Assembly: GCA_022426155.1 (NCBI GenBank)
Contig: JAKMEE010000047.1
Span: 5,968 to 69,967, forward strand
DNA from: Poseidonia sp.
Lineage (GTDB): Archaea > Thermoplasmatota > Poseidoniia > Poseidoniales > Poseidoniaceae
Direction of reading: 5' to 3'
Length of the DNA stretch: 64,000 bases
The notes beneath the pieces were generated by a model that made no database searches, was not told the DNA's origin, and saw nothing but the letters and a program-made list of their open reading frames with translations. Position 1 is the first letter of the stretch; each line of letters opens with the position of its first letter. Positions 6,374 through 42,427 of this stretch are shown in pieces. A program made the translations under genes and the position numbers.

Positions 6374-6556
6374 TATTGACCGACTCTTGAATGTGATGGG
6401 CGATGAGCTTGGGGGGAGGGGATGAATCAGAGGCCTTCAAAATCCGTTGGTTTAAGACAGTCCTCTGTGCAAGTCTGCCTGCAACCGACCTGAGGCGTGC
6501 TGTGGAGTCTTCATATACCGTCAAAGGTTAACGAGAGTTGGAGAGGAGATGATACC

Positions 6557-8785
6557 ATGACAGACAAAGAAAATTCAATTTCACTTCGAGTTTCAAAAGC
6601 CATTCCCTCCGACGTTGGTCACGGCCGTGCACGCATTTCAGCGGACATTGGTCTTGACCTCAAACCGGGCGATATCGTTGAAATCAGCGGCGAAGACCGC
6701 TCAACAGCGGCCATCTATTGGCGTAGTAGGCCAGAAGATGCGAAAATGGATATTATTCGCGTTGACGGTATCATCCGTAAAAACGCAGGCGTGAGTCTGG
6801 GGGATCGTGTTACGGTCACAAAGGTAGATGCCAAAGAATGTACGAAACTAACCATTTCTCCTGTTATGGCGAGCAAGCAGAAAGTAAAATTCGGACCTGG
6901 AATTGAAGGGTTTGCCCGACGAGGTCTCGCCAAGCGCCCTGTTGTTGCTGGTGACCGAATTTTTATTCCAGGTATGACGCTTTTTGCTGAAGCCCTGCCC
7001 TTTGCAGTGGTCCAAACCACCCCGAAAGGCATCGTCAAAGTGACCACCGAAACCGAGATTGTCATCAAAGATGAAGCGGTTGCAGAGGAAGATGTCGGTC
7101 AATCCGAGGGAATTACCTACGAAGACGTTGGAGGTATCGGACAACAATTGTTGAAAGTTCGTGAAATGATTGAGCTACCCCTCAAACATCCAGAATTGTT
7201 CCGAAGGCTGGGCATTGACCCACCAAAAGGTGTGTTACTTCACGGCCCTCCAGGTACAGGAAAAACCATGATTGCAAAGGCAGTTGCCACCGAGGTCAAC
7301 GCTCACTTCAAAAGCATCAATGGGCCAGAAATCATCTCAAAGTATTACGGTGAATCAGAAAAACAATTGCGTGAAATTTTTGATGAAGCCGCAGATAATG
7401 CACCTGCCATCATCTTCATTGACGAAATCGACTCAATCTGTCCAAAGCGTGAAGATGTGACCGGTGAAGTTGAACGACGAGTTGTTGCACAAATGCTGAC
7501 ACTGATGGACGGCATGCAAGGTCGTGATAACGTTGTGGTGATTGGAGCAACCAATCGAAGGGACGCCCTTGACCCTGCGCTCCGTCGCCCGGGTCGGTTC
7601 GACCGAGAAATCGAAATTGGAGTTCCAGACCGTGAAGGGCGTAGTGAAATCATGGATGTTCACACTCGCCAGATGCCCATCGCTGAAGACTTTGACATCG
7701 CATGGGTGCTCGACAATACCTACGGTTTCGTTGGAGCCGACCTTGCAGCGCTCGTTCGTGAATCAGCCATGAAGGCACTGCGACGATATTTACCAGAAAT
7801 TGACCTTGAAGAAGAGACCATTCCTCCAGAAGTTCTTGAGAAAATGGAAGTCTGCATGAACGATTTCAAGGAAGCTATTCGTGACATCGAACCCTCTGCA
7901 CTTCGAGAAATCTATGTTGAAGTGCCTGAAGTTTCATGGAAGGAAGTTGGCGGTCTGACCGAAGTCAAGGATCGTTTGAAGGAATCGGTGGAATGGCCAT
8001 TGACAAAACCTGAACTCTTCGAACACTTTGGAATTAAGCCACCTCGAGGAATCGTTCTCTTCGGTGCCCCTGGTACTGGAAAAACATTGTTGGCAAAGGC
8101 CATTGCGAATGAAGCTCAAGCGAATTTCATCAGCATCAAAGGTCCTGAGTTGATTTCGAAATGGGTTGGTGAATCCGAGCGTGCCATTCGTGAAATTTTC
8201 AAGAAGGCAAAACAATCCGCTCCATCCATCATTTTCCTCGATGAATTTGAATCGATAGCAACCATGCGTAGCGGAGGTTCATCCTCAGAAGGCAGCGATG
8301 TTGGAAACCGGGTTGTTAACCAATTGCTGGCGAGCATGGACGGTGTTGAATCCCTTGACGGCGTCATCATTGTTGCCGCAACCAACCGCCCAGAGATGAT
8401 AGACCCAGCATTGCTACGCAGCGGTCGCTTTGAGCGTGTTCTCCACGTCCCTCCCCCCGACACAGGCGCCCGTGAAGTGATTTTCAACATTCACTCAAGT
8501 GGTATGCCATTGAGTAAATTCTCCTTCAAGGACATCCTTTCAGGGATGGATGGGTTTACCGGAGCTGACATAGAAGCCGTGTGTCGAGAGGCAGCCCTCA
8601 TCTGTATGCGTGCAGGCAAGAAGCGTGTGACGAAATCACACTTTGAAGAAGCTATTTCCCGTGTTAGGCCAACGGTTACACCCGATATGTTGGAGTATTA
8701 CCAGAAGATGGAAACCCGTCTCACATCTGGTTTGACCAACATCAAGCGTAACCGTGACTTCAGTCGCGGCATGGAAACCATGTGA
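6557..8785 (+). CDS. cdc48: Cdc48/VCP-type AAA+ ATPase (two AAA domains)
   Basis: Walker A motifs GPPGTGKT and GAPGTGKT. Walker B motifs IIFIDEID and IIFLDEFE. The N-terminal domain is Cdc48-like ([23 protein letters not shown]). I chose the ATG at 6557, preceded by GGAGAGGAG. The track ORF starts 20 codons earlier. Confidence 0.93.
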
Positions 8786-8852
8786 TGACCTTGTACATCA
8801 CCGACGCATTGATGGAGTCAACACTCGGTCCGTTCCTTGTTCACGGGGTATC

Positions 8853-9095
8853 ATGATGGCAATCTTCGGTCGCGAAATCATTGGACTTGAGGTTCTGGAT
8901 CGTGCTGGTGTCTTGCTTGGTAATCTCGTTGACCTTCAAGTTGACCTCAAGACCGGCGGACTGAACGAATTGCTGGTGGAAGTTGAAGCTACAGTTCCCG
9001 CCAGCGGCTTGCCGTTTGAGAGTGAGGGGAGCCTCGTCAAAATACCATCAACTGCCGTCGCCCGAATTGGGGCTAAAATCCACCTGAATCAGTAG
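8853..9095 (+). CDS. Small PRC-barrel domain protein
   Basis: 80 aa from MMAIFGREIIGLEVLDRAGVLLGNLVDLQVDLKTGGLNELLV...IPSTAVARIGAKIHL. This is the typical single-domain archaeal PRC-barrel pattern (G..V.d..G..lG.v.dl.vd..tG.i..l.v). The upstream 33 codons of the track ORF overlap the cdc48 3' end and were trimmed. Confidence 0.7.
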   Translation: MMAIFGREIIGLEVLDRAGVLLGNLVDLQVDLKTGGLNELLVEVEATVPASGLPFESEGSLVKIPSTAVARIGAKIHLNQ

Positions 9096-9182
9096 ATTTT
9101 GAGGATTTCCATGATAGAGCGGCATGAGCATTTTCACCACTTGATTGGACAACCTTCTAAAGTTAGGGGAGAGCGTGGATAA

Positions 9183-10823
9183 GTGCGAACATTCTTCGCG
9201 GCGATGCAAATGCTCGGACTTCCAGCCAACTTGAACGTCAGAAGAACCGCCCTTCAGGCGTCATTCTGGTTGGTGATGCTCATCCTTTTGATGACCGTAC
9301 TGGTGAATTTCATCAATCTGAGTACGACCAATCAACTCTCGGCATACGACGATGATTGGAACGATATGTCAGCCTTCAGGGAAGACATCAAAGAAATGGG
9401 TATTCAAACCAATTCTCTTGTGAGCAGTCCCCTGTTATTGGCCGATATTGAAGATCCTCGAAACACCACTTACATTCTTGCAGGTGTTGAGCGGGACACC
9501 CTGACCTTGCCTCAATTTGATGATGATGGTTTCATCACCATAGCATCTGGTAACGGTTTTTCTCCTTCTGAAATCACCGCAATCGTTGAATTTGTTGAAG
9601 CAGGTGGAACAGCATTGGTCTTGGAGGATTATGGCTACGCAAGTACCATTGCAGAAGCCTTCGGCATCCGTTATACCGGTGAACAAGTGTATGACACGAC
9701 CTATGTCGCTGAATTAGATTACAATTACATTTGGATGTGCATACAATCCAACCCTTGCGGTATGAATGGGACAGATGTGGACCCTAATACACTCAGTTCA
9801 CATGATCGATGGGGGGCCATTGGTGAACCAGGGGCTCACCCCTGTGCGAGTTTGAACGGCGAAGAGATGACATTTGAAGAGGCAGGTCTTTGCTCTCAAC
9901 ATTGGATTGGGGGTACCATCGAATACAATGCCACCTACCAAATGTTGGTCAACAATATCACAGGTCTCGAAGTGATTCCTGGTGTGCGTGGCCCACTAAC
10001 TGAAGTTGCCATTCGCTCCCTGACCAGTAACGAAGCCACCGTTGATGCAAACGGTGACGGCGAGATTTGGGTCGGAAATGAGATCACACCAGAAACCCCA
10101 GATCGATGGGGCCAATTCAACATGAGTATCGAGGTGTGCGCTCGTGCAAGTTGCGATCCAAGCGACGGTGGACGTATTCTGTTCATATCTGATGGCTCAG
10201 CTCTCATCAATGCGATGTACGACTATGAAGGGTTCAATGATGGGGAATATGGGCCAACAGATACGCTCATGCCTCAAAACGATAATCGTAAATGGGCTAT
10301 GGATTTCATCGCTGAGGCCCTGATGAGCGAAATCGTTGGCGAAGAAGGTCAGCCCGCATCCAATGCAATGGTGATTTTTGATGAATCTCGTCATCCCCAA
10401 AGTGCCCTGGCAGGAGACGCTTACAACACCGTATACTTCCTCTTGGTGTATTTCACTGGAGAAGGTTTGGCCATGTTATTGCTCTTCCTGATTCTTTTCA
10501 TTACCTTTGAAGCGGTCCTTATCAAAAAGCGAGACCCAGAACCATGGCGTCACGTTTTCAGTATCATTTACTACGGATTTGGCGATGCCAATCGTTATGC
10601 ATATTATTCCAAAGTTGAGAAAATCCGTCAAGTATTCCTCTCCAAGGTTCGCAATCAAAACGGATTGAACCGTGATGAGTTCCAAAACATGCAGGCCAAT
10701 GAGTTGGTGTCGATGATCAACGACCCCGTTCTTGCTAAATTTGCTGTTGATGCCAATAACCGGTACACACTAGAGCAAACGGTTGCATTGGTCAAACGAA
10801 TCAAGGCGTGGGGACGTCAGTGA
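9183..10823 (+). CDS. DUF4350-like membrane protein (N- and C-terminal TM helices with a large extracytoplasmic domain)
   Basis: 546 aa with a GTG start. N-terminal TM FWLVMLILLMTVLVNFI, then SAYDDDWNDMSAFREDIKEMG...IVEFVEAGGTALVLEDYG, which resembles DUF4350. C-terminal TM LAMLLLFLILFITFEAVLI. It sits directly upstream of a DUF58 gene, as in known DUF4350-DUF58 clusters. Confidence 0.6.
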   Translation: MRTFFAAMQMLGLPANLNVRRTALQASFWLVMLILLMTVLVNFINLSTTNQLSAYDDDWNDMSAFREDIKEMGIQTNSLVSSPLLLADIEDPRNTTYILAGVERDTLTLPQFDDDGFITIASGNGFSPSEITAIVEFVEAGGTALVLEDYGYASTIAEAFGIRYTGEQVYDTTYVAELDYNYIWMCIQSNPCGMNGTDVDPNTLSSHDRWGAIGEPGAHPCASLNGEEMTFEEAGLCSQHWIGGTIEYNATYQMLVNNITGLEVIPGVRGPLTEVAIRSLTSNEATVDANGDGEIWVGNEITPETPDRWGQFNMSIEVCARASCDPSDGGRILFISDGSALINAMYDYEGFNDGEYGPTDTLMPQNDNRKWAMDFIAEALMSEIVGEEGQPASNAMVIFDESRHPQSALAGDAYNTVYFLLVYFTGEGLAMLLLFLILFITFEAVLIKKRDPEPWRHVFSIIYYGFGDANRYAYYSKVEKIRQVFLSKVRNQNGLNRDEFQNMQANELVSMINDPVLAKFAVDANNRYTLEQTVALVKRIKAWGRQ

Positions 10824-10832
10824 GGTGAGATC

Positions 10833-12086
10833 ATGTGGACACGTAAAGCAGCCTTCACCTTCACAGGCGGTATTGCCTTGGTACTGATTGGAATGATGAT
10901 TTCCAATCAACAGATGATGATTCTCGGCTTATCCCTCGTTGCTTTTATCGTTGTTAATTCATGGATTTCAGGCCATGGAGATGTCGAAGTGCAACGAACT
11001 CTCTCTGCTGACAATCTCTACAAGGGTGACGATTTGTACGTTGAGTTGCTAGTGACTAACCGCAGTAATCGTAAGACTCAAATGCTGGACATTTACGATA
11101 ACATCCCTCATGAAATGAAATTACGAAGTGGTCTCAATCAAATGCAACTAAACCTCAAACCTGGTGAAAGTGCCCGAATTCGATACGTCCTGCGATGCCC
11201 TCTGCGTGGTCATTATTCCATTGGGCCTGTCTCGCTACGAGCTCGTAATACCTTCAATCTAGGAGTGGAAGACATGTATGTGGACCACCACAGCGACATC
11301 GTGATATTCCCTCAAATCAAGGATATCGAAGAGGCCTTCTTACGAAGCCGAACCCCCAAGATGTACACCGGAGCGACGACGCTACGAACCCCAGGGCAGG
11401 GGTCAGAGTTCTATTCGTTGCGAGAGTATGTCCCAGGAGATCCGTTCAAGAACATCAATTGGAAGGCTTTCGCTCGTACGGGTGAATTGATGGTCAACGA
11501 AAAGTGCCGTGATGCGGTAACTGATTTGTATCTCATATTAGACAGCAGAGATTTAGCAAGAATAGGTACAGTTCTCAAAAACCCTCTCGAGATGGGGACA
11601 GTTTCTGCAGCAAGTCTTGCAGCGTTCTTCCTGAAGCGACGTGATTCGGTAGCGTTGGCAGTTTATGATGAGAAATTAGCTTATTTGCCACCCGATACTG
11701 GTGACAAGCAGTATTTCAAAATCCTCAGTGCACTCGCAGGAGTGACGCCGAAAGGTAACATGCCTCTCCAAGCAGTGACCAATTCCTTGAGCGGACGTTT
11801 TAGTCGAGGTAGCCCCGTTTTCATCATCTCATCGTGCGAAGGTGACGGAACAGTCCCAGCCGCAGTTCGGGACCTAGTGGGCCGAGGTCACGAAGTCACG
11901 GTGCTGTCTCCATCCAGCGTTGACTTTGAACGCTTAGTGAGCCGAATTCCTCGTATGTCCTACGAAGTTCTCAAAATCGAACGTCAAAATCGTTTGACTA
12001 CCCTAGCAGGTTCTGGGGCACAGGTTATTGATTGGATGCCAGACATGGATTTGTCTCAGGCTTTGATGCAGGTGAGGGGGTACTAA
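10833..12086 (+). CDS. DUF58 domain protein (vWA-like)
   Basis: 417 aa. Signature GQGSEFYSLREYVPGDPFKNINWKAFARTGELMVNE. Two N-terminal TM helices. GAGGTGA SD-like motif 6 nt upstream of the ATG. Confidence 0.8.
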   Translation: MWTRKAAFTFTGGIALVLIGMMISNQQMMILGLSLVAFIVVNSWISGHGDVEVQRTLSADNLYKGDDLYVELLVTNRSNRKTQMLDIYDNIPHEMKLRSGLNQMQLNLKPGESARIRYVLRCPLRGHYSIGPVSLRARNTFNLGVEDMYVDHHSDIVIFPQIKDIEEAFLRSRTPKMYTGATTLRTPGQGSEFYSLREYVPGDPFKNINWKAFARTGELMVNEKCRDAVTDLYLILDSRDLARIGTVLKNPLEMGTVSAASLAAFFLKRRDSVALAVYDEKLAYLPPDTGDKQYFKILSALAGVTPKGNMPLQAVTNSLSGRFSRGSPVFIISSCEGDGTVPAAVRDLVGRGHEVTVLSPSSVDFERLVSRIPRMSYEVLKIERQNRLTTLAGSGAQVIDWMPDMDLSQALMQVRGY

Positions 12087-12087
12087 G

Positions 12088-13308
12088 ATGGCAGGTGAAG
12101 TAGGACTCCAATCTGATGTTCTCCTCGAAGGAACGGCTCGTCCACGAACCCTCCACCTCAAGAATCTTCGGCGTCAATGGCAAATTCTCGCACTGCAAAT
12201 TCTCGCCACAGTGGCATTGATTGGTATGTACATGGAAGTCGTTGCCACCTATGTTGTTGGATCGATTGATCATACAATTTTGTTTGACACCATTGAATTG
12301 TTGATTGGTGACCAACTTCCACTCGGCGACTGGTTGACTGGCGAAGGGAGGAATGGATTAGGTCGTTTCTTTATCCCACTCATCCTCGGTCTTTCCTTGG
12401 GTGGATTGATGTCCTTCATCGCATTCCAAACACCTCAATTCCAGCAACGATTGAAATTAGGCTTCATCATCACCATGATCACCTTGCTCATTGGGCGTTT
12501 GGTTCTTTCATGGCTTGCAGGCATGCTATTCTCATTCGACTTGCGAATGCCAAATGAATCAGAATTGGACACGTTGCAATGGCCATTATTGATGATTATG
12601 TCTCTGATGATCATGTTCATCTATTTACTACCCGTCATTATGGGGACACGAGGTATTTGGGGCCTCTCACGTCGTTCCATTGCTTGGGCCATTGGCTTCA
12701 CACTCCTCTTTTTGGGGATTCATGCTATCTTGACATTCCCGCTCATTAAGGCGCAATTAGGGGCTTATGGCGGCACACTGGCAACGCTTGAAAGTCAATC
12801 GTCGAATCCGACTATCGGATTATTTGGATTGAAACTGGTGACTCAAGAACAATTCAATTTGATTTCCATTGCCGTGTTGATCATGGTCTTCCAAGAAGCC
12901 AGTTACGGCGTGATCCGCAATCTCGAATACGCTTTCCGCCTCCCTGAGTCGTGCAAGCGAGACCCAGAATATGTCCGCCAAATGGACAATGTTCTGAACA
13001 CTCACCTTCGCCACACATTCCTTTTCTTGGGATTGACAGGCATTGCTACCATGGTGGCATTAGGGTTCCACAAAGTCCTGCTCACCGTAGTCTCAGACAC
13101 AACTGGAAATCAATGGGCAGGTCAAGTTTCTGAGTCCATTGAACTCACCCTCACCTATGGACTTGTCATCTCGGCCTTACTCTTCTTGAGCATCATGGCC
13201 GTTCTTCGGTTCTTTGTACCTTGGCAACGTGTGATTGGTTTCATCCAATCTCGTTCCACGCCCTCTGAACAACCTGCAGTCAAGAATCAAGATTTCACAC
13301 AATTGTGA
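12088..13308 (+). CDS. Polytopic membrane protein, function unknown (third gene of the DUF4350/DUF58 cluster)
   Basis: 406 aa with many hydrophobic helices. It starts 1 nt after the DUF58 stop, with AGGTGA upstream. Confidence 0.65.
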   Translation: MAGEVGLQSDVLLEGTARPRTLHLKNLRRQWQILALQILATVALIGMYMEVVATYVVGSIDHTILFDTIELLIGDQLPLGDWLTGEGRNGLGRFFIPLILGLSLGGLMSFIAFQTPQFQQRLKLGFIITMITLLIGRLVLSWLAGMLFSFDLRMPNESELDTLQWPLLMIMSLMIMFIYLLPVIMGTRGIWGLSRRSIAWAIGFTLLFLGIHAILTFPLIKAQLGAYGGTLATLESQSSNPTIGLFGLKLVTQEQFNLISIAVLIMVFQEASYGVIRNLEYAFRLPESCKRDPEYVRQMDNVLNTHLRHTFLFLGLTGIATMVALGFHKVLLTVVSDTTGNQWAGQVSESIELTLTYGLVISALLFLSIMAVLRFFVPWQRVIGFIQSRSTPSEQPAVKNQDFTQL

Positions 13309-13312
13309 TTTC

Positions 13313-13546
13313 TTAGAGTGCTTGTATCAATCGGCCAATGGATTCGCAACAAGCTAACAAGAAGATTGGGAATATAACCCATCCCAGAATGAGCCCCAGC
13401 ATTCCTCCTGAAAATTCGGAAATTACCGGCCCAATGTAGAAGGTTAAGACTGGTATGCACAGAAGTAAGAATCGTTCGATCCAGAGAGGGTATGTGTCCC
13501 CTTTCTCTTCAATGCGATCCAACAATGTGGTTGTCGCCTCTTCCAT
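13313..13546 (-). CDS. 77-aa two-TM membrane protein, last gene of the Roadblock operon
   Basis: TM helices FLLLCIPVLTFYIGPVI and GMLGLILGWVIFPIFLLACC. A GAGGTG motif lies 6 nt upstream of the ATG and overlaps the TGA of the upstream giant gene. Confidence 0.6.
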   Translation of the reverse strand: MEEATTTLLDRIEEKGDTYPLWIERFLLLCIPVLTFYIGPVISEFSGGMLGLILGWVIFPIFLLACCESIGRLIQAL

Positions 13547-13555
13547 TTAAACACC

Positions 13556-16500
13556 TCAAAATTCAACGTTTGATAGTCTAGATTCGAGTTCAGCAAGGGC
13601 GGAATCAGGTTCTGCGCTGGTTGGACTAGGGTGGAGGTCCCGGTGACTCCATGCGGCGTCCAAACGTGCTAATTCGGCTTCTAATTCAGCCCTCTCCCCC
13701 TCAACATCCATCGAAACAGCGGTGGTTCTCGCTGATGACGACTTCACTTCGGCCATTACCTCATTGTCGCTAGGTGCAGGTAATTCCGACCATCCCTCGT
13801 CATCAACTGGAACTTTGGTTTCGCTTTGTATGGATTCCAATACTTCCTCTTCGATGAGTGAGGATTCGAGTTCTTGCATCATTTCTTCGCTCACAGGCAA
13901 TCGTTGACCAGCTGGGATTGATGAACGTTCAAAGGGCAACAAGCCATCTCGTTGGAAATCCCATAACATACCACGTGGAACACCATTGGTGAGTCCTGAG
14001 GCATCCAGTTGGGTGATCAATTCCTCCAACACTCTAGCTGTTTCTTCTAACCCAATGGCTTCACCAGCATCTCGTCGGTCCGCTTCGAGGTAAATGTCAT
14101 CCAAAGCAACTTGGATGAGTTTTCTGGTACCTTGCGCCAAACGTGGAAGTGATTCTGGTCGCTGACAATTTGACAACAAGGCCTGAATTTCATGCTCGGG
14201 TGCTCCGAGTCGTTCCACTTGTTCCAAGACGTTTCTGATTCTGCGCAACATAGTGATGGAACGGTCATAGTCTTCTAACAAATGCTCGAGGTCAAGCACC
14301 ACATGATTGACCGTTTCTCCAAGTTGGTGTTCCAAGCGTTGTTGAACCGACCATCGAGCGAGACCTCGCACGGCTCCTGCTGTTTGTGGAACCTGTCGCT
14401 CCAACAGAGTCATCACTTCTGAGGATAAGAGGTGGCGAGGAGTTGCGGCGACATGATCAACGGTTGATTGAATCACTTGGAGGGCACGTTCAACTGCTCG
14501 GTCCAACATGGTGACTGAATAGCCAAGACTTCGGGCATGTTCCAATCGTTCTAGCACCGGTCCAAGGCCTTCGAAGGTGTTGTTGTCATCAAGGAGCGCC
14601 TGGGCGAGAGGCTCTTCAGCCAACCTTGCTCGAAGGCGTTCTGCTTCCTGAATATCCACCAATGCTTCCTCATGCGCTTCAGCAAGCGCTGTGGCCTTCT
14701 CGACAAGGGATGACAATTCAGCCTCTGCGTGGCCTCTTCTTGCCCCCATATCTCCTAATTCTCGGAGAAGTGTTCGACGTTCGTCCATCAGTTCACGCAA
14801 TTCCGCTTGGATGTTCGCCCGACGGGCCTCATCTTCAGAGAGGCGTAGACGGTCTTCTTCCATCCGCTTTCTCGAACTCCGTTCATCGTTCTTGACCGCT
14901 TCAAGTTCCATTTGGTGGACATGAATTTGTTCTTGCAATTGCAGCACATCAGCTTGGGAACGAGCGTGACGTTCTCTGGTTGCGTTAACCTGTTCAGTGA
15001 GGACTCTCAATCGCCGTTCTTCATCATCACTCTGTTGCCGAACGGTACTGAGTCGCTCTCCACCTTCGCTCAAATTCGCTTGAAGTTCTGCTTCTTTGAG
15101 GGCCAGTGTTTCAATCATCTCGTGTAATTTTGCACTGGATTCGGCCTCGCCCAGAGCCTTGGCAAGTTCTGAAGCTCTTTCACTGACTTGATGTTCTAAT
15201 TCGTTTACACGACGGACCAAACGTTCGGCTCTTGATTCAGCATCTTCACTTCGATTGCGAGATTCCGCCAAGTCAACTTGCATTGAATTCAACTTCGCAT
15301 TGGCTTCTTCCATCGCCACTGAATGAATTTGGCGACTTTCATTTGCTTCACGAGCAACGATTTGAGCCGCATTGGATTTCGTTTCCAGTGCTTTGATCTT
15401 TGATTCCAGCCCATGGTTGGTTTGACGAAGCTCTTCGACGGTTTGTTCAGCCGCTTCAAGCCGACGTTGTAGGCCAGCATCAACTGCTGCAACAGCATTT
15501 TCTTGAACAACGGGCAAACCTTTGCTGGTTTCAACTCCGTCAGTTTTCAACACGACCTTGGCTCTGTCCTTGCGGAGAGATTCAATGCCAATCTCAAACC
15601 CAAGCATCTCGGTTAACTGGTTGCTCAGAGAATTTCTTCGTGCATCCGAACGTGTTCTGATGGTTGCCAAGGTTTCGCAGAATTGGCCCAAACCAAAAGA
15701 TTCGATGGTGCCAGATTTTGAAGATACAATCGTTCCTGCATCAAAGCGATTCAATTTGAGGACTCGCTTGGGTTCAGTGAACATTGTCATGGCTTCATCA
15801 AGATTTTTTGCAGAGGGTGCCCAGAGAGCCACGGGTACACCGCGTGAAAGAATGAGTGAAACTGCTTTGGAGGAGGCACCTGCCTGGATATGGCCCGTAA
15901 TATCCTCTTCGATTGAGGCTTTGAGCATGGACATGACTGCGTCAGGGCCACCTCGTCCTTCACGGAGGGTGAATCCATTCGGAAGGCTAGAGCCATGTTC
16001 CCCAACGGCACCTATCTCACCTTCCAATGCAATGGATGCAGAAGAGATAAGACGAGCATGGTTCGCATCAATTTCGGTCCATACTGCCAGGGCGATATCT
16101 CCACTCTGAGCTAAAAGTAGGGAACCGTTGTTGGTGTGCAGTGTCCAGTGACCGCTTCCAGCGAACCCAAGTTCCATGTGGACGTCTTCAATATGGATGT
16201 CCTCCAAAATGCTCTGAATTCGAGTGGCCAGGTGCTCTGCAGGACTAGGGAGTTCACCCGATTGGTCAATGAGCATTCCAGCATCAACCGCAATAGCGCC
16301 ACGAACAGTAGGGTCTTCGCATAATTGGCGCAAAACTTCGGAGAGGTCTCGAGCTAGCAACCGTTCAACGAAATTGGTGACAGATCCCAAACCTTGGCGG
16401 TCGGTTTGATGTTCAAAGGCCTCGGGAATCAGATTTGCAATTTGTCCGAGTCCCTGAAGCGTGTATTGAGTAGCTGTATGGCGAACTTTCTCAGCATTTT

Positions 16501-16744
16501 CTAGCGATTCAAGAGCTTCACGTGCCTCTGCACCGACGAGTAAATCCTTTTTCTGTGTGTATTTACTTCCTTCAACCAACCATCCAACGATTCGGCCCGC
16601 ACGAACAAGTCGATGGCCAGCAGGTGTCTTCCTTCGTCCAAGCCAAGTGGATATCACTCCGTAGGAGAAGGGCTGAAGCCGACCAGCTTCAAGTGTGATG
16701 TCGTCAGTTACGGGGGTTCCATTGGGCAGTTCAAACATGGTCAT
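13556..16744 (-). CDS. 1062-aa multidomain protein: internal Roadblock/LC7-like domain, PATAN/DUF4388-like module, ~290-aa coiled coil, helical repeats and an acidic tail
   Basis: Long uninterrupted ORF. Residues ~140-240: VRGAIAVDAGMLIDQSGELP...GSLLLAQSGDIALAVWTEIDANHARL (Roadblock-like). Residues ~258-335: ITGHIQAGASSKAVSLILSRGVPVALWA (DUF4388-like). Residues ~420-712 are E/R/A/L/Q-rich heptad sequence. It starts 4 nt after the Roadblock gene stop. AGGTGA lies 6 nt before the second ATG (16738), which may be the true start. Confidence 0.85.
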   Translation of the reverse strand: MTMFELPNGTPVTDDITLEAGRLQPFSYGVISTWLGRRKTPAGHRLVRAGRIVGWLVEGSKYTQKKDLLVGAEAREALESLENAEKVRHTATQYTLQGLGQIANLIPEAFEHQTDRQGLGSVTNFVERLLARDLSEVLRQLCEDPTVRGAIAVDAGMLIDQSGELPSPAEHLATRIQSILEDIHIEDVHMELGFAGSGHWTLHTNNGSLLLAQSGDIALAVWTEIDANHARLISSASIALEGEIGAVGEHGSSLPNGFTLREGRGGPDAVMSMLKASIEEDITGHIQAGASSKAVSLILSRGVPVALWAPSAKNLDEAMTMFTEPKRVLKLNRFDAGTIVSSKSGTIESFGLGQFCETLATIRTRSDARRNSLSNQLTEMLGFEIGIESLRKDRAKVVLKTDGVETSKGLPVVQENAVAAVDAGLQRRLEAAEQTVEELRQTNHGLESKIKALETKSNAAQIVAREANESRQIHSVAMEEANAKLNSMQVDLAESRNRSEDAESRAERLVRRVNELEHQVSERASELAKALGEAESSAKLHEMIETLALKEAELQANLSEGGERLSTVRQQSDDEERRLRVLTEQVNATRERHARSQADVLQLQEQIHVHQMELEAVKNDERSSRKRMEEDRLRLSEDEARRANIQAELRELMDERRTLLRELGDMGARRGHAEAELSSLVEKATALAEAHEEALVDIQEAERLRARLAEEPLAQALLDDNNTFEGLGPVLERLEHARSLGYSVTMLDRAVERALQVIQSTVDHVAATPRHLLSSEVMTLLERQVPQTAGAVRGLARWSVQQRLEHQLGETVNHVVLDLEHLLEDYDRSITMLRRIRNVLEQVERLGAPEHEIQALLSNCQRPESLPRLAQGTRKLIQVALDDIYLEADRRDAGEAIGLEETARVLEELITQLDASGLTNGVPRGMLWDFQRDGLLPFERSSIPAGQRLPVSEEMMQELESSLIEEEVLESIQSETKVPVDDEGWSELPAPSDNEVMAEVKSSSARTTAVSMDVEGERAELEAELARLDAAWSHRDLHPSPTSAEPDSALAELESRLSNVEF

Positions 16745-16748
16745 TCAC

Positions 16749-17090
16749 CTACATTTCAGGGGTTGTGGCGAGAGATCGCCGATGGAGATCGATGCTGTGG
16801 CGCCAGCGTGCAAGATTGCCGCCTTCACCGTGTAGCATAAGGATGCGATGAGGGGTGATGATGTCAACCATGGTTCGAGCCTTGCCCTCAAGCCACACTT
16901 CCTCGAGTTCTCCGAACTCAAGATTTTGAACGGCTTCCAATGCCCCAGCTGCGATGTTGACTGTGCGCTCAACCGCAGGTACAGAGCCTTGTTTGTTGAT
17001 GCCTGCAAGCAACCTTCCCCGATCGTCGATCATCAAGGCTTGCTGAACGCCATTTTGGCCCATCAATGATGTGAGGAGGCGTGGAAGCAT
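16749..17090 (-). CDS. Roadblock/LC7 (MglB-like) domain protein
   Basis: 113 aa. GVQQALMIDDRGRLLAGINKQG...ELEEVWLEGKARTMVDIITPHRILMLHGEGGNLARWRHSI fits the Roadblock/LC7 alpha-beta-alpha pattern. A GAGGT motif lies upstream. Confidence 0.8.
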   Translation of the reverse strand: MLPRLLTSLMGQNGVQQALMIDDRGRLLAGINKQGSVPAVERTVNIAAGALEAVQNLEFGELEEVWLEGKARTMVDIITPHRILMLHGEGGNLARWRHSIDLHRRSLATTPEM

Positions 17091-19883: not shown

Positions 19884-21734
19884 ATGAACATTCCCGCAGG
19901 TGATGATGCGCTTCCACTTCAATATGAAGTCGTAATGCGGAGTGATTATGGGGGGTGTCAAGTGTCGCAAGGCATGGTCACTTGGGCGGATGCAGATGCA
20001 GCGGTGGCTACTCAACGCCAATTACGTGTGAAGCGTGTTGAATCCATAACCACGCTCACGGCCCTCCTCATTCTTGCGTGTGCCATTTGGTTGGCTTGGC
20101 CAAGCCTCGATGCTCTCATCTCCGGACGTGGTGTTGCCTTGTCGAGTTTTGGTGCCCCAACCCTTCTTCTGGTTTGGGGAATTATTCTTCAGGATGTGGC
20201 ACTTGATGACCCCTCTGCGCGCAGCAGAATTGGAGCAACCGCTTCGATAGCCTGGCCAGTTCTCGGTGTTCTGGGAGCCTTAAGTCTTGAAACGACCTTG
20301 AATTCGGGAACCATCGGAGGTATTCTCATCTTCTTTGTTGCATGGATATGCCGTCGTGAATCAAGACAATATTTGCGAGGTTCATTTGGAGTCTTGCGCT
20401 TCCGTGCGATGATGACGGGGATCGGTACTGCGTCCTCGTCGGTGTTCTTGTTCAACCAATTTGATGTCATCACTTCGGGTCTAACCGTTCTTGCTCCTAT
20501 CATCGTTCTAGGGGCCTTGGTGGACACTATCCACACTTGGGTGGTTGGTGACGACCAAAAAGCGATGAGAAAAGCATTCAAACGACGATTGGACGAACTC
20601 GAGCAACGTCTTCTGGAACTCAAAGCCCAGGGTGCAGCAGTTGACCAAGCGGCCAGTCTCCTGACAACAGCGCGGGAAGAAGGGCACTTGGACCCAGTGT
20701 ACGGCATGCGCCTTCTCGATGACAGTGAAGAGGACATGAACCGTTCAATTTCACTTGCAGATGATGTTGAAATTATCCGTCAAGATGCTTTGAAGGCGGT
20801 TGAAGATGCCGAAGATGTTGCTCCAACCGCAAAGCGTCCAAGGAGAGCCTACGACATGGGTGAACGAGAAGTTGCTCTCGGCTCATTGAGAGAGGGTGAA
20901 TTACTGTTTCGAGAATCGAAAAAGCGGGCACAAGAAATCAATGAATGGTGGGCTGAGGCGGAACAGGCCATTGCCGAAGGTACTCGTTTACTGGATGGTA
21001 AAAAAGGAGATGGTATCGCACGACTCCATGAACTTCTGGCCGAAGCGCGTGAACTTCTTGCTTCAGAAAAACCGCGGGAGGCCTTCGAATACGCTTCAAC
21101 TGTACCTGCACAATTTGCCGCCGATGGTGATGCACAAGAACGGGCGGACGATGCGATTGAAGAAGCTAAGCGCCAACTCAAACAGACGGACGGCTTAGAT
21201 ACCGATGAAATGGAACAACGTCTCGCCCAAGCCGAAGAAGCGCTTGAGGCTGGACACGCAAGTCAAGCCATCGGTTTGGCAGATGGCATTGTTCGCACGA
21301 TTTCCAAAGAACGGGCAGCGATGGACGATGTACTTCGAGCATTGAAACAACGTAAACAATTAGTCAAGCGCTTCGAGGGGCGCGACGACGCTGATGATTG
21401 GCGTACTGCACTTAGTGAAATTGAGGTGGCTGCGGAAGACCGTAATTGGAGCCACGCTGGGATGTTACTTGAACAGATGACGGCATCGTTGGACCGAGAA
21501 GGAAAAGCAGGGGACGAGGCCTTAGAATTGTACGATTTCGTCATGGAAGAATGGCGTGTCCTACGAAATCAATGTGAGGCAGCCAATATTGACCTCAAAG
21601 ACGAAGATCGACGGGCCTGTGAACAAGCGATTGCTTTGGCAGAGGAAATGCTTGGAGTTAGCCGAATTGAGGATTGTTTGGTCCACCTGAGCGAAGCCGA
21701 TTCAGCCATGGAACGCTTACGACGAAGGATTTGA
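19884..21734 (+). CDS. Membrane protein with ~390-aa acidic cytoplasmic helical-hairpin (TPR-like/coiled-coil) repeat domain, function unknown
   Basis: 616 aa. Four to five TM helices lie between residues ~55 and 215. A D/E/A/R-rich helical region follows, with recurring units such as LLAEARELLASEKPREAFEYA, LAQAEEALEAGHASQAIGLADGIV and IALAEEMLGVSRIEDCLVHL. Confidence 0.75.
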   Translation: MNIPAGDDALPLQYEVVMRSDYGGCQVSQGMVTWADADAAVATQRQLRVKRVESITTLTALLILACAIWLAWPSLDALISGRGVALSSFGAPTLLLVWGIILQDVALDDPSARSRIGATASIAWPVLGVLGALSLETTLNSGTIGGILIFFVAWICRRESRQYLRGSFGVLRFRAMMTGIGTASSSVFLFNQFDVITSGLTVLAPIIVLGALVDTIHTWVVGDDQKAMRKAFKRRLDELEQRLLELKAQGAAVDQAASLLTTAREEGHLDPVYGMRLLDDSEEDMNRSISLADDVEIIRQDALKAVEDAEDVAPTAKRPRRAYDMGEREVALGSLREGELLFRESKKRAQEINEWWAEAEQAIAEGTRLLDGKKGDGIARLHELLAEARELLASEKPREAFEYASTVPAQFAADGDAQERADDAIEEAKRQLKQTDGLDTDEMEQRLAQAEEALEAGHASQAIGLADGIVRTISKERAAMDDVLRALKQRKQLVKRFEGRDDADDWRTALSEIEVAAEDRNWSHAGMLLEQMTASLDREGKAGDEALELYDFVMEEWRVLRNQCEAANIDLKDEDRRACEQAIALAEEMLGVSRIEDCLVHLSEADSAMERLRRRI

Positions 21735-24266
21735 GCCGAGATCCATCAGGCCAGATGCCTCAGCAGAATCCGAGTTGAAACCACCGGGGAGTCCGATGTC
21801 AATTGGCATGCCACCAACGGTGACCAATATGCCAGCAAGATGAGTGTAAAGGCCCATCGGTAGTTCATTTGGAAGCGATTGATGAAATCCTTTCTTATGG
21901 CGCTTCAATGAATCCCACGGTTCATCAATACCCAGAGCAACCCAACCATTTGCTTTCCAAGCGTGTGACTTCAGAGAAACACGCTCCAAAAATGGAGCGG
22001 GGGCCACATTGTGTTTTTCCCATTTCAATTCCCATTCAACATCACCGAACAACCATTCGATGCCTGTCGTTTCAGAACTGGGCATCCGCGTGTGGCCTTG
22101 CAAAGCGAATTGTTGTAGGAGGTTGTTGATATGAGGATTCGGTGAATGTTTTTTGCTCAATTTTTCCAACAAATCCACCGCGGTGATGATTCGTCCAGCA
22201 TCGTGATGAAGCAAACTTTGGGTGATGTAGGCTTGCACCCATGTTTCATCATCATCGGCCTCTAAAGCGTCTTCAAGCAAACTCAGGGCGTATTCTGATT
22301 TCCCGACCAATCGCATTTTAGCAATCTCGGACAAAAAGGCCCTTTTCTCAATCGGCGTCTTTAACTCAATTCGGGGGGTAGAGACTTCTCCTACCGAGTA
22401 TCGCCGAAGCATATCGATGTTCCTCAAAGTGGGTGGGTCAATGGAAAGGATGGATTTAAGTTGTTCATTGAAGGAACGTTTTGGATTCAATAAACTCGCA
22501 ACCCATTTCAGCCTTACAGATTCAACATCATCATCATCCAGTAAGTGCAACCTTGACTTGACCTCTCGGTTATCGCGTTGACATAGACTCGCTGCAAACA
22601 AAATCTTGTGAGCGAGTTTAGTATCTCTTCCTCCTTGAAGCGCAAGGAGATTAATTGCAGCATCTTCAGCTTCGTCCCAACGTCCAAGGCCTGCATGCAA
22701 GATCATGGATGCTGACATTTTGCGAGCCATATCCAGCCCTACAAGTATGTCTTCAGAGGCCTCTGACATCGCCTCGTAACGATTGAGGGCGGTTGCCCAA
22801 TCATCTACAGAAATCAACTCGTTGGTTGTCCGTTGTTTCACGTAAATCATGTCGCTCACGCCGCGTAGTCGTGCTCGGTTTTCACCCATCGCTGCATCAA
22901 ATGAAATATCACCTAAGGCGCCAGCTTTCTTCCAAGAGAGGGACCACACGACAAAGAAGGCGATTTGTCCACCTGATGCGAGCATCCACGTGAGTTCTTC
23001 CAACATGTCCTTTTCCATGTAGGTGCAAACTGTTGTTTCCCACGTTCCACAAGAATCAGCTTGGGGTAAGAAGCTTGAGTCCCAGAACGTGATCATGGCC
23101 AAGGCAAGGAGCAACATGGATTGCCCAGCAAATCCAGTGAAACAGAAATTGAGCACTCTCGCCTGTTGGGTCGGTTCAGCGCGCAACAAACGGCTATCTG
23201 CGAGTCGGATACCTCCCACACCGGCAACATCTTGAACATCGAGAAAGAGAATGCGTGCGACTTCATACACGAAGAGAAACCCTATCACGGCTACGTTGAG
23301 TAACAAAAACAACAGCAACGCTGTTACAATTGGTACGCGAATATCATCTTGTGGGATGAATGAAAACAGTTCAATCAGTCCAAAGCCGAGCAATCCACCT
23401 TCTTCCATGTAGGTGTTTTGAAGCCTGTATTCATCCAACCCCTTGACACGCGCTGAATGTTCAAACATGGTTGGGTCATAAAGCAGAACGATGAGGGAAA
23501 GAAGAGTGTTGAATGCCACGAAGGGCATAGCGACCAAGTTAATGTTGACCACTTGAGCGATGAATTGTTGTCTTGCATTCGGTCGATGGTTGTGAAACGG
23601 GGAAGCTTCGCCTTTTGCGATGGTGCTCGATGATTGCTTGAGTGCATACCATGACGACCCAAGGATTCGACCATAGGCTAAAACTGCGGGACTAAACGCC
23701 ACCAGGCTAGCAATGCTCAATGCGTGAGCTCGATCGTATCCTTGTGCATCCATCACGTAGCCGACCACAGCAGCCAGTGCAAACCATGCGATGGTTAAGG
23801 CGATGAAAGAAGCGTTTCGAATACTGGTGTTGAGCTGCATCGTTGCGCGAGTTGTGCCCAATGGACGTACCACTTGAGCCCCCAATGAAGTCCCCGCTGA
23901 AACCAAGGCGGGTAGCATGATCATGATCAAAGCCAGAGCGATGGTTGGTGAATGAAATCCACCACTGCCGAGGTAGCGGTAATTGAGGAACTCAAAGAGT
24001 AGGATCATGCAGCCGGTCAATCCAGTCAGGTAGGAAACAACTCCAAAACGCATGCCCCTTGAACTCAACAATTCTTTGGCGTCCTCAACTGTGTTTGTCA
24101 CTTGATGAACTTCGTATTGCTTTTTTCCAGTTTGAAAAGCGACTTGGAGGCCACGTAATTGTCGTGGAACAACTCTGTCCCAGAAAAGCCAAGCAGCCAA
24201 ACCCGCTAGAAGCACGGGGAGAACCATAGAGAGAGAGAATCCATCCAAGAGTTCTGGTTGGGTCAT
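21717..24266 (-). CDS. Large polytopic membrane protein with a C-terminal TPR-like soluble domain, function unknown
   Basis: About 849 aa from the ATG at 24266. The track ORF begins at a GTG at 24281 that overlaps the thrS stop by 4 nt. There are more than 10 hydrophobic helices in the N-terminal ~450 aa, followed by helical repeats (ILHAGLGRWDEAEDAAINLLAL, YALSLLEDALEADDDETWVQAYITQSLL). The 3' end overlaps the convergent gene 19884..21734 by 18 nt. Confidence 0.75.
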   Translation of the reverse strand: MTQPELLDGFSLSMVLPVLLAGLAAWLFWDRVVPRQLRGLQVAFQTGKKQYEVHQVTNTVEDAKELLSSRGMRFGVVSYLTGLTGCMILLFEFLNYRYLGSGGFHSPTIALALIMIMLPALVSAGTSLGAQVVRPLGTTRATMQLNTSIRNASFIALTIAWFALAAVVGYVMDAQGYDRAHALSIASLVAFSPAVLAYGRILGSSWYALKQSSSTIAKGEASPFHNHRPNARQQFIAQVVNINLVAMPFVAFNTLLSLIVLLYDPTMFEHSARVKGLDEYRLQNTYMEEGGLLGFGLIELFSFIPQDDIRVPIVTALLLFLLLNVAVIGFLFVYEVARILFLDVQDVAGVGGIRLADSRLLRAEPTQQARVLNFCFTGFAGQSMLLLALAMITFWDSSFLPQADSCGTWETTVCTYMEKDMLEELTWMLASGGQIAFFVVWSLSWKKAGALGDISFDAAMGENRARLRGVSDMIYVKQRTTNELISVDDWATALNRYEAMSEASEDILVGLDMARKMSASMILHAGLGRWDEAEDAAINLLALQGGRDTKLAHKILFAASLCQRDNREVKSRLHLLDDDDVESVRLKWVASLLNPKRSFNEQLKSILSIDPPTLRNIDMLRRYSVGEVSTPRIELKTPIEKRAFLSEIAKMRLVGKSEYALSLLEDALEADDDETWVQAYITQSLLHHDAGRIITAVDLLEKLSKKHSPNPHINNLLQQFALQGHTRMPSSETTGIEWLFGDVEWELKWEKHNVAPAPFLERVSLKSHAWKANGWVALGIDEPWDSLKRHKKGFHQSLPNELPMGLYTHLAGILVTVGGMPIDIGLPGGFNSDSAEASGLMDLGSNPSS

Positions 24267-24277
24267 GCTGATCGTCC

Positions 24278-26299
24278 TCACTCTGTTGCTGGTACCAATG
24301 AGGGTTGGCTGTGTTTTTCACCAATTTCAGTCAGCAAATCTTGCTTAAATTGTTCCAAAGAGATGTCGGCGATTTGGTCTCCGTTACGGGCGCGTAGACT
24401 CACCGTTTCATGTTCCATCTCTCCATCGCCCAAAATTACCATGTAAGCAGGTTGCAATTTACGGTGTGTACGGATTTTTTTGCCCACGGTGTCATCCCCA
24501 TCGTCAACTTCCACACGGACACCTAATTCACGCAGTTCATCTGCGACGCGGGCTGCATACGCTTTGTGCTTCTCTGAGATGGTAATGATGTGACATTGCG
24601 TTGGGGTCAACCAGGTGGGGAACTTACCAGCGAAATGTTCAATGAGGACGCCACAGAACCGTTCCATTGAACCAAACGGGGCGCGATGAATCATGACAGG
24701 ACGATGGAGTTCACCGTCATTGCCCTTGTAAGTCAGGTCAAAGCGCTCCGGCAAATTGTAATCCACTTGGACAGTTCCAAGCTGCCATTCTCTGCCAATG
24801 ACGTCCTTGACCACAAAGTCGATTTTTGGACCGTAAAAGGCAGCTTCGCCTTCTTCTTCAGACCATTCAACTCCAAGAGATTCAGCCGCTGTTCGACAGG
24901 CATGCTCGGCTTGTTCCCAACGAGAAGGGTCTCCAACATATTTTGTGGAATCAGGGTCTCTGAGGCCAACACGGACGCGATAATCAGTCATTCCGAGGAC
25001 ATTGAAGATAATCTGCACCAATTCAATGCACCCAAGCACCTCGGCTTCAATTTGGTTTTCTGTCACGAACAGGTGGGCGTCGTCTTGAGTAAAGCCTCGT
25101 ACACGTGTCATGCCTGAAATTTCACCCGATTGCTCCCATCGATAGACCGTGCCGAATTCAGCTAAACGCAGTGGCAGATTTCGGTATGACCGAGGCTGAC
25201 TTGCATAAATTTTCACATGGTGGGGGCAATTCATTGGCTTGAGCATATAACCATCAATCTCGCCAGTTTTCATGAGATTTGATAACTCGCCGCACGTACA
25301 CCCCTCATCCGCCAATTTTTTCATCAATTCACGTTCAACCAATGGAGGGTACTGGGATTCTTGGTAATAGGGGAAGTGTCCGGATGTTCTGTAAAGATCC
25401 AACTTTCCAATGTGGGGGGTGAAGACATGTTGGTAGCCCTGGCGTCGGAGATGTGAGGAGATGAAATCTTGGAGCTCCTGTCGAATGACGGCGCCCCTTG
25501 GAGTCCAGAGAATGAGCCCCTGGCCAACATCTTCGTCGATGTGGAATAATTGCAAATCCTTCCCGAGCTTACGATGGTCACGTTTCTTTGCTTCTTCCAT
25601 CCGACGCAGCGTTGCTTTGAGCGCATCTTTGGTTGGTTCAACCAAGCCATAGATTCGAACCAATTGCTCGCGTTCCTGGTCGCCTCGCCAATAGGCTGAG
25701 GAAACCGATGTCAATTTGATGAACATGAGGCGAGAGGTATTGGGGACGTGGGGGCCCAAACAGAGGTCATACCATTCACCTTGCTTGTAAATCGTGGAGC
25801 CATCACCATCTTCCAATTTGTCGTCGATGATCTCGATTTTGTATGGATTATGTGCAAAATGGTCTCTGAGTTCTCCCTCTGATAATTCCACCCGTTCAAC
25901 AGTAAAATTTCTTCGAGCAAGCTCTTGCATCTTTTTCTCAATGGCTTTGAGGTCGCCTTCGGCGAGGGGGTCCATCGCAAAATCGTAATAGAAACCACGG
26001 TCAATTGCGGGGCCGATGGTTGGCAAGGCGCCAGGGTAGAGTTCCATCACAGCCTGTGCAAGAAGGTGAGCGGCTGAGTGGCGTAGAATGTGGATGCCCT
26101 CATCTGATTCGCTGAGAATACCCTCGACGGAGCAATTCATGTCCAGAGCAGTGGAAAGGTCACATTGTGCTCCATTGACCTTTGCTGCGAGGCAGCCATG
26201 CTTTTTCCCGATTGCATCAGTGATGACTTCGGCACAAGTGATACCAACGGCGTATTCATTCACCGTTCCATCCGGCAAGGTGACGTGAATCATGCTCAT
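24278..26299 (-). CDS. thrS: Threonyl-tRNA synthetase (full-length, bacterial-like architecture)
   Basis: 673 aa. N-terminal TGS-like MIHVTLPDGTV. Editing-domain motif HSAAHLLAQAV. Class II core and anticodon-binding domain. GGAGGA lies 7 nt upstream of the ATG. Confidence 0.95.
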   Translation of the reverse strand: MSMIHVTLPDGTVNEYAVGITCAEVITDAIGKKHGCLAAKVNGAQCDLSTALDMNCSVEGILSESDEGIHILRHSAAHLLAQAVMELYPGALPTIGPAIDRGFYYDFAMDPLAEGDLKAIEKKMQELARRNFTVERVELSEGELRDHFAHNPYKIEIIDDKLEDGDGSTIYKQGEWYDLCLGPHVPNTSRLMFIKLTSVSSAYWRGDQEREQLVRIYGLVEPTKDALKATLRRMEEAKKRDHRKLGKDLQLFHIDEDVGQGLILWTPRGAVIRQELQDFISSHLRRQGYQHVFTPHIGKLDLYRTSGHFPYYQESQYPPLVERELMKKLADEGCTCGELSNLMKTGEIDGYMLKPMNCPHHVKIYASQPRSYRNLPLRLAEFGTVYRWEQSGEISGMTRVRGFTQDDAHLFVTENQIEAEVLGCIELVQIIFNVLGMTDYRVRVGLRDPDSTKYVGDPSRWEQAEHACRTAAESLGVEWSEEEGEAAFYGPKIDFVVKDVIGREWQLGTVQVDYNLPERFDLTYKGNDGELHRPVMIHRAPFGSMERFCGVLIEHFAGKFPTWLTPTQCHIITISEKHKAYAARVADELRELGVRVEVDDGDDTVGKKIRTHRKLQPAYMVILGDGEMEHETVSLRARNGDQIADISLEQFKQDLLTEIGEKHSQPSLVPATE

Positions 26300-42377: not shown

Positions 42378-42427
42378 GTGAGCCTAGGACCACAACTCTT
42401 GAAGAGGAGCGGCATCAACAATCAATC

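Follow-up and report, generated by a model that had tools for sequence, protein, structure and literature searches.

A conserved three-gene Roadblock/LC7 operon of the Poseidoniales encoding a giant coiled-coil protein and a predicted two-helix membrane protein

Introduction

What does a Roadblock/LC7 protein do when its gene is coupled to those of a giant coiled-coil protein and a very small membrane protein, and when no gene for a small GTPase lies nearby? This question is raised by three minus-strand genes in a 64,000-nucleotide (nt) stretch of DNA from Poseidonia sp. (assembly GCA_022426155.1, contig JAKMEE010000047.1, positions 5,968 to 69,967), and the whole of this stretch is referred to below as the window. 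In the order of transcription, the genes encode a stand-alone Roadblock/LC7 protein of 113 amino acids (aa), a multidomain protein of about 1060 aa, here called the giant protein, and a 77-aa protein with two predicted transmembrane (TM) helices. We see an even chance that the three products form one Poseidoniales-specific complex, in which a long, membrane-attached scaffold or tether carries a Roadblock platform that would organise the space of the cell. An earlier, sequence-only reading of the window had proposed a membrane-tethered scaffold of a polarity or cytoskeletal type, which was a reasonable inference.

The Poseidoniales, or Marine Group II (MGII), are among the most abundant archaea of the surface ocean and are uncultured; to our knowledge, almost nothing is known of their cell biology. 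Within that biology the operon is firmly established, universal, and unexplained. Public annotations of the giant family read "hypothetical protein" or carry generic COG labels, and our literature searches found neither a description of the operon nor a study of it. As three proteins, two of them small, it presents a defined laboratory target, and work on it could bear on the organisation of the membrane or envelope in MGII cells and on the role of orphan Roadblock/MglB proteins, that is, those without a GTPase partner nearby.

Results and Discussion

Conservation of the operon

One genome per GTDB species was scanned, which gave 204 genomes with a relative, and 80 loci were kept. Nearly all of the 80 are titled Poseidoniales, Poseidoniaceae, Poseidonia, or as a generic archaeal metagenome-assembled genome (MAG), and they include the original MG-II genome, CM001443. 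Across these species representatives the order Roadblock–giant–small is kept wherever the contig allows, with gaps of 0–12 nt, and the possibility, raised together with the sequence-only reading, that the three genes are never syntenic in related genomes is decisively contradicted. The lengths vary little: 112–113 aa for the Roadblock protein, 1046–1066 aa for the giant protein (about 60 MGIIa species loci), and ~75–84 aa for the small protein. In nearly all loci the gene for the small protein follows that for the giant protein after 0–12 nt, and it is present in MGIIb as well.

A hidden Markov model (HMM) built from the N-terminal part of the giant protein was searched exhaustively against 1.84 billion representative proteins and returned only 77 matches; all the full-length ones are 1020–1089 aa long and align from residue 1. 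The cluster names place the family in the Poseidoniaceae (MGIIa) and the Thalassarchaeaceae (MGIIb) and are otherwise generic archaeal MAG labels, and an MGIIb locus has the same three genes with the same neighbours. The giant family is limited to the Poseidoniales and nearly universal there. The operon is single-copy and under clear purifying selection, as seen in the 82% identity of the C-terminal domain of the giant protein and in the fixed length of its coil.

Some database entries should be read with caution. One contig with the operon is filed as a "Verrucomicrobiales bacterium" MAG (L043; NZEQ01000033.1), which is most likely a binning error. In three long-read assemblies (L001–L003; ENA ERZ285480xx "_pilon" contigs), the genes for the giant protein, PyrI, ThrRS, and Cdc48 are split by apparent frameshift errors, and splits of this type account for the many ~430-aa "homologues" found in databases.

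Structural annotation

The open reading frames (ORFs) of the operon are co-oriented and tightly coupled on the minus strand (Table 1), as the sequence-only reading had described them, and both junctions have the form that it gave. The giant gene begins 4 nt past the Roadblock stop (TAG at 16749–16751, then GTGA, then ATGACCATG, with the ATG at 16744), and a GAGGTG resembling a Shine–Dalgarno sequence, just 5′ of the 77-aa ORF, overlaps the TGA of the giant gene, the 3′ end of which reads ...GAATTTTGAGGTGTTTAAATG.

The first ATG need not be the one that is used. Read from a second ATG, at 16738, the protein would begin with MFELP, in line with the orthologue consensus MFxLP, and the spacing between the Roadblock and giant genes in most relatives is 8–10 nt, in agreement with this second codon. 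For these two reasons the start is probably the ATG at 16738, and the true giant protein would have 1060 aa. The three genes are co-inherited and translationally coupled.

Table 1. Window coordinates of the operon, of the domains of the giant protein, and of the convergent genes
Feature	Position (nt)	Strand	Evidence or remark
Gene 1, stand-alone Roadblock/LC7 protein, 113 aa	16749..17090	minus	ORF; Pfam Robl_LC7; PDB profile matches
Gene 2, giant multidomain protein, 1062 aa from first ATG	13556..16744	minus	ORF
D1, beta-rich N-terminal domain, giant residues 1-125	16370..16744	minus	AlphaFold2 model; alignments
Embedded Roadblock/LC7-fold domain, giant residues ~128-246	16007..16363	minus	AlphaFold2 topology; Foldseek; sub-threshold Pfam
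D3, compact α/β domain, giant residues ~250-345, then connector helices to ~residue 400	15710..15997	minus	AlphaFold2
Coiled-coil rod, giant residues ~420-712	14609..15485	minus	composition, periodicity
C-terminal helical domain, giant residues 713-945	13910..14608	minus	identity profile; alignments
Acidic tail, giant residues 946-1062	13559..13909	minus	alignments, charge
Gene 3, predicted two-TM hairpin protein, 77 aa	13313..13546	minus	ORF; hydropathy; orthologue alignment
Convergent neighbour row	6497-13308	plus	co-directional, tightly spaced, facing the Roadblock operon
Cdc48	6497-8785	plus	
PRC-barrel protein, ~80 aa	~8850-9095	plus	Pfam PRC, E 3.8e-7
DUF4350	9183-10823	plus	
DUF58	10833-12086	plus	
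Multi-TM protein without family, 406 aa	12088-13308	plus	

The two Roadblock modules

Judged by its sequence family, the 113-aa protein is a genuine but divergent member of Roadblock/LC7. The copy in the window scores 16.6 bits with the Pfam family Robl_LC7 (PF03259), for which the cutoff is 23, so that it stays sub-threshold; the family is matched by 22 of its 23 orthologues, with a best E of 2e-7. When a profile of the 113-aa family was compared with the PDB, the top three entries were Asgard Roadblock proteins (7f8m, 9jue, and 7yh1), and MglC (7ct3) was also listed.

The head of the giant protein was modelled with AlphaFold2 over its N-terminal 420 residues, using an alignment of 25 orthologues (mean predicted local distance difference test score, pLDDT, 76.5). 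The model has three domains: D1, Roadblock, and D3. Residues ~134–241 follow the topology α-ββ-α-βββ-α, which is the Roadblock order. When the head was compared with the PDB using Foldseek, nearly all of the best-scoring matches listed were Roadblock/LC7/MglB/LAMTOR chains, the best being 7yh1 (E 1.9e-6, probability 1.0, TMt 0.74, ~115 columns), and TMt values of 0.66–0.74 were obtained for 7yh1, 9jue, 3kye, 7f8m, LAMTOR2, and MglB. The Foldseek output comes without query coordinates, and the match was placed by topology and Pfam position: residues 134–241 are the sole segment with Roadblock topology, and it is there that orthologues match Robl_LC7. These Pfam matches are sub-threshold and occur in 4 of 11 divergent giant orthologues; in the MGII orthologue P0042, residues 132–215 cover profile positions 4–89 of 91 (E 6e-4, likewise sub-threshold). 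Both Roadblock assignments of the sequence-only reading, the 113-aa protein and giant residues ~140–240, are borne out by these results.

Sequence searches against the PDB with the N-terminal region and with the C-terminal domain of the giant protein returned only noise of the coiled-coil or FliS level. An internal duplication was considered and rejected, as comparisons of D1 with D3, and of the Roadblock domain with either, showed none. D1 is predicted to be ββββ-α-β-α at residues 28–105 and carries the conserved basic motif GRRKTPxGHRLVR; it has no detectable sequence relatives and no Pfam match.

The missing GTPase

MglA–MglB modules have the gene for their cognate Ras-like GTPase no more than a few genes away from that for the Roadblock protein, and here none was found. 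The G1+G3+G4 set of GTPase motifs is carried by no ORF of the window, nor by any in the ±10-kb surroundings of 87 related loci, which add up to 1.56 Mb. Walker A occurs in the window in Cdc48, an Mrp/NBP35-type ATPase, and an ABC ATPase only. The absence of a GTPase from the operon and from the 64 kb had been noted from the sequence and stands; the implication that it is remarkable does not, because orphan Roadblock/MglB genes are common in prokaryotes. Of the 749 prokaryotic MglB homologues surveyed by Wuichet and Søgaard-Andersen, 328 (44%) were "orphans," uncoupled to MglA, and no orphan had been experimentally characterised as of that 2014 survey (PMC4316618).

The obvious alternative is that the Roadblock pair is a platform of the GTPase-activating or guanine nucleotide exchange type for a Ras-, MglA-, or Rag-like GTPase encoded elsewhere, with the coil and the anchor positioning the activity as in the MglA/MglB polarity module. 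Both modules share the fold of MglB, LAMTOR, and Asgard Roadblock, Roadblock/longin dimers commonly bind small GTPases (PMC10933270, PMC4316618), and the automatic annotation of the Joint Genome Institute (JGI) calls some members "predicted regulator of Ras-like GTPase activity." We nevertheless regard a GTPase-regulatory complex as doubtful. The motif searches above speak against it, as does the report that archaeal MglA group 4 is almost confined to methanogens, and the function of the 44% of MglB homologues that are orphans is not known (PMC4316618). Functions that do not involve GTPases are known as well for Roadblock and longin domains (PMC10933270).

The D3 domain

In the model of the head, D3 has the order β-α-βββ-α-β at residues 258–333, with helices onward to ~394, and a separate AlphaFold2 model of residues 245–400 reached a pLDDT of 89 and a predicted template modelling score (pTM) of 0.84. 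The sequence-only reading had likened residues ~258–335 to a PATAN/DUF4388 module, an identity that we reject as unsupported. The Pfam model of DUF4388 (PF14332) matched none of 26 close giant orthologues at E<=5, none of 11 divergent ones at E<=1, and neither of the isolated D3 and D1 segments at E<=10. The same model gives 37–61 bits on five Deinococcus plasmid domains, which were retrieved with a consensus used as bait only and were then verified with Pfam.

Against these verified domains, a shallow profile of five Deinococcus sequences, hhalign gave P=0.33 for D3 and P=0.03 over 15 columns for D1, with negative controls at 0.09–0.39. The alignment of D3 falls in the register implied by the sequence-only reading, yet it is not significant. 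The D3 model had no match among PDB structures (best E 0.15). We know of no PATAN structure in the PDB. From the lack of a DUF4388 signal and of a structural match in the PDB, D3 would be an orphan fold, modelled as a well-folded domain without detectable relatives. A remote kinship with PATAN may exist; the predicted order of secondary structure is compatible with that of DUF4388, which is a lead only.

One string in D3 deserves a warning to annotators. In 12 orthologues, GHIQ[AS]GKS fits the regular expression for Walker A (the window equivalent is at nt ~15870-15895), and we considered and rejected it as a P-loop: it lies in a predicted β-hairpin, it is not conserved, and the window reads GHIQAGAS. 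The resemblance is probably a coincidence.

Two Deinococcus plasmids, NC_017805.1 (L089:2305-3918) and NZ_CP097151.1 (L091:2114-3376), encode proteins of 537 and 420 aa, respectively, with Pfam-verified DUF4388/PATAN. Both continue with a Pro-rich linker and a C-terminal segment that is Roadblock/LC7-like by eye (…AAALVDYESGMALGMAG…IEDILITLQSQYHIIY…). Pfam calls no Roadblock domain in this segment at E<=0.01, and the gene is unannotated in the PLSDB table; these proteins may be a natural PATAN–Roadblock fusion.

The coiled-coil rod

Residues ~420–712, which the sequence-only reading had recognised as a heptad region, are rich in E, R, A, L, and Q and almost devoid of Pro and Gly. In the hydrophobic pattern averaged over the family, a periodicity of 3.5 residues spans ~415–685 and shifts its register at the conserved G532; other landmarks are a conserved LGDLGARRG at 663–671 and an invariant P at 712. 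The length of the rod is near-invariant across the order (293 reference residues in 299 alignment columns, 82 sequences), and residues 1–295 were matched by tblastn without a change of length.

A long heptad rod with conserved breaks and a membrane partner is what one might expect of an intermediate-filament-like cytoskeletal protein of the crescentin/FilP/Scy type, which would polymerise under the membrane for cell shape, with the Roadblock modules regulating its assembly. Several orthologues do match the crescentin rod family of Pfam, weakly (best E 0.001). These matches, however, are a generic coil likeness far under the thresholds, more than two-thirds of the giant protein is globular or non-coil, and the rod is not its most conserved part, so that we hold a filament of this kind to be unlikely.

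The coil (residues ~420–715) also draws weak matches to NCBIfam models of SMC/Rad50 and to the PADLOC model of JetC, as might be expected of an SMC/Rad50-like chromosome organiser. They are confined to the coil and reach 46 bits against cutoffs of 567–1087. A Walker A/B ATPase head, a hinge, and a zinc hook are all lacking, Pfam SMC_N, hinge, and Rad50 zinc-hook models do not match, and the D3 string discussed above is in a β-hairpin and unconserved. Because the ATPase head is missing, the SMC reading is effectively refuted; we reject an SMC, Rad50, or JetC identity and would be very surprised if it proved correct. The defence-system models of PADLOC gave coil-type noise only against the giant protein (E 0.002-0.003).

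The C-terminal domain, the acidic tail, and the 77-aa protein

The most conserved part of the giant protein is the helical domain at residues 713–945, with a mean pairwise identity of 0.82 versus 0.63 in the coil and 0.55–0.60 in D1, Roadblock, and D3. Its motifs are EEPLAQALL, LLDRAVERGL, VRGLTRWSVQQRLE, RPEALP, ALDxIYLEADQRD, and LWxFQxxGxLPFE. Helical-hairpin repeats had been suggested to follow the rod; the thirds of the domain were compared with one another and no sequence repeats were found, and we do not retain the suggestion. The domain has no relative in the PDB or Pfam (FliS, at E 0.02, is noise), and none outside the giant family was found in a word-indexed profile search.

Past residue 946 the protein is acidic, as had been proposed. 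The linker at 946–1015 is variable and very acidic (charge about -14), and the chain closes with a pair of amphipathic motifs that are conserved and likewise acidic, ERAxLEAELARLDA and LxxLExxLS[DN][LIV][DE]-hydrophobic-COOH. The "ELESRLSNV" of the window resembles the ESCRT motif MIM1, but two of its residues, the Arg in the centre and the basic one at the end, are unconserved in the family, and this candidate was rejected.

Hydropathy shows two hydrophobic helices in the 77-aa protein, in line with the earlier two-TM call. The flanks are conserved as well: across 69 orthologues, TM1 is preceded by RxE..G..YP[LM]..ER, TM2 contains a Pro, and E..GR..Q follows TM2. By these sequence features it is a real gene.

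A proposed complex

We propose that the stand-alone Roadblock protein would dock on the head of the giant protein (D1–Roadblock–D3), because Roadblock domains act as dimers, and that the two would make up a Roadblock-dimer platform; such domains are known as dimeric platforms (PMC10933270). Through the ~270-residue heptad region, at least two giant chains would pair and form a rod with a length of tens of nanometres. If the fixed length of the coil is under selection, the rod would therefore be a spacer or ruler. At its far end, the C-terminal helical domain and the acidic peptides would offer the main docking surface for the motifs of the two-TM protein, presumed to be cytoplasmic, and this docking would fix the assembly to the membrane. 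The platform could then recruit or sense a partner encoded elsewhere, either a nucleotide-dependent switch or some other protein, and the outcome would be a spatial organisation of the cell that concerns the envelope, division, or polarity.

Charge offers a hint, and only a hint, of contact between the first two proteins. The C-terminal helix of the 113-aa protein, ARWRH..D..R..LATT, is nearly invariant in the orthologue alignment, and residues 90–113 are strongly basic (pI 11.5). The giant protein has the opposite character, with a net charge of about -60 and the conserved acidic motifs at its end.

One lineage, the most divergent, supplies a point in favour of the proposed complex, a link between the operon and the envelope. 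There, the giant and small genes are separated by an inserted gene (L086:13221-14567, L087:13221-14567), which overlaps the 3′ end of the giant gene by ~50 nt and encodes a type-I membrane protein of 448 aa with FG-GAP repeats. The FG-GAP domain of this protein is presumably extracellular.

Several observations pull the other way. In a crude analysis of co-divergence, the partial r of the 113-aa protein is 0.49 with D1, 0.36 with the tail, and -0.17 with the embedded Roadblock domain, values that are confounded by phylogeny; because of the last of them, a simple Roadblock–Roadblock heterodimer is not favoured, although the test is a weak one. A profile comparison of the two Roadblock modules is also weak (P 0.014 over 35 columns). 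Lastly, the helical hairpin with both ends on one side of the membrane, on which the anchoring step depends, is a predicted topology that comes from hydropathy and motifs only.

A broader version of the proposed complex can be put forward tentatively, although we think it somewhat improbable. The operon could encode a Poseidoniales-specific, universal apparatus of cell organisation, in which a GTPase-free Roadblock-dimer platform is read by D1 and D3 and signals via the coiled-coil ruler to the membrane hairpin and, in some lineages, to the FG-GAP surface protein; it could position the machinery of the envelope, division, or motility. If true, the Roadblock platform would here be used independently of GTPases, within an architecture that is wholly new.

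Comparison with known systems

No characterised family in Pfam, NCBIfam, PADLOC, or the PDB matches the giant protein, and the view of the sequence-only reading that the operon fits no described archaeal system agrees with our searches of these four resources and of the literature. By analogy, the operon resembles a Roadblock platform of the Ragulator or MglB/MglC type set on a bacterial-style coiled-coil scaffold, and it is a member of neither system. The Roadblock fold is shared with known systems and the logic of the platform plausibly so, whereas the architecture of the operon is undescribed in the literature that was searched.

MglB and MglC of the MglA polarity module (Myxococcus and Thermus) have the same Roadblock/LC7 fold (6h5b, 6hjm, 3t12, and 1j3w by Foldseek; MglC 7ct3 by profile) and, like the operon, include a small Roadblock protein that stands alone; it is plausible that the operon, too, is linked to spatial organisation. 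The operon differs in that it has no MglA-type GTPase nearby, one of its Roadblock domains lies inside a coiled-coil protein of ~1060 aa, it has a dedicated two-TM partner, and its sequence similarity is under the family thresholds.

Ragulator (LAMTOR1–5), which acts with the Rag GTPases, has similar Roadblock modules on a membrane-anchored scaffold (LAMTOR2/3 matches 5y39, 1veu, and 2zl1), and different Roadblock chains pair together in it. It is eukaryotic, however, and its anchor is the lipidated, extended LAMTOR1, without a coiled-coil rod, where the operon has a predicted two-TM hairpin. The Rag GTPases have no counterpart at the operon.

For both modules, the Asgard Roadblock proteins (Thor-RB 7f8m, MKD1-RB 7yh1, and 9jue), which are archaeal and about 115 aa long, are the best matches by structure and by profile. 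Unlike the operon proteins, they are homodimeric and single-domain, they come from GTPase-rich genomes, and neither a fusion to a giant scaffold nor a two-TM partner is on record for them.

Among bacterial scaffolds, FrzS, AglZ, crescentin, and Scy/FilP have a globular, regulatory module at the N-terminus and a long heptad rod, and their proposed role as scaffolds is similar. The N-terminal module there is REC, in contrast to the D1–Roadblock–D3 of the giant protein, and the homology is that of generic coil only. Further differences of the giant protein from these scaffolds are the fixed length of its rod and the high conservation of its C-terminal domain. PATAN (DUF4388) proteins, whose genes are often found near MglA/MglB homologues (10.1101/2021.06.11.447907) and among which are REC–PATAN–Roadblock-like fusions of Deinococcus, are set apart by the lack of a DUF4388 signal in 37 giant orthologues and by a profile comparison at the level of noise. 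D1 and D3 have confidently predicted folds, D3 especially, without sequence relatives, and D3 also appears to lack a structural relative in the PDB.

Genomic neighbourhood

The operon faces a convergent row of plus-strand genes (Table 1), and the stops of the 406-aa and 77-aa genes, at 13308 and 13313, lie 4 nt apart. MGIIa, MGIIb, and the most divergent lineage all keep this adjacency. The PRC-barrel proteins of archaea are division proteins, with genes that often stand beside that of Cdc48 (10.1101/2023.03.28.534520), and the Roadblock operon might act together with the Cdc48–PRC-barrel–DUF4350–DUF58–406-aa operon, for instance, as an adaptor or substrate in cell division or the cell cycle. 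We consider such a partnership quite improbable. The locus is part of the conserved core genome and the whole region is collinear across the order (ThrRS, pyrBI, TtuA, and aldehyde dehydrogenase), so the adjacency may be general synteny only; moreover, the two operons are on opposite strands, and no domain-level link between them was found.

Other large ORFs of the window may interest the annotator. Those at 42374-45511 (plus strand, 1045 aa) and 21717-24281 (minus strand, 854 aa) have no significant Pfam family. A 616-aa protein encoded at 19884-21734 on the plus strand, without a Pfam or NCBIfam family, is multi-TM at its N-terminus and has a long helical C-terminus that is very acidic, and a gene of similar size without a Pfam match stands beside pyrB at the corresponding place in other Poseidoniales loci.

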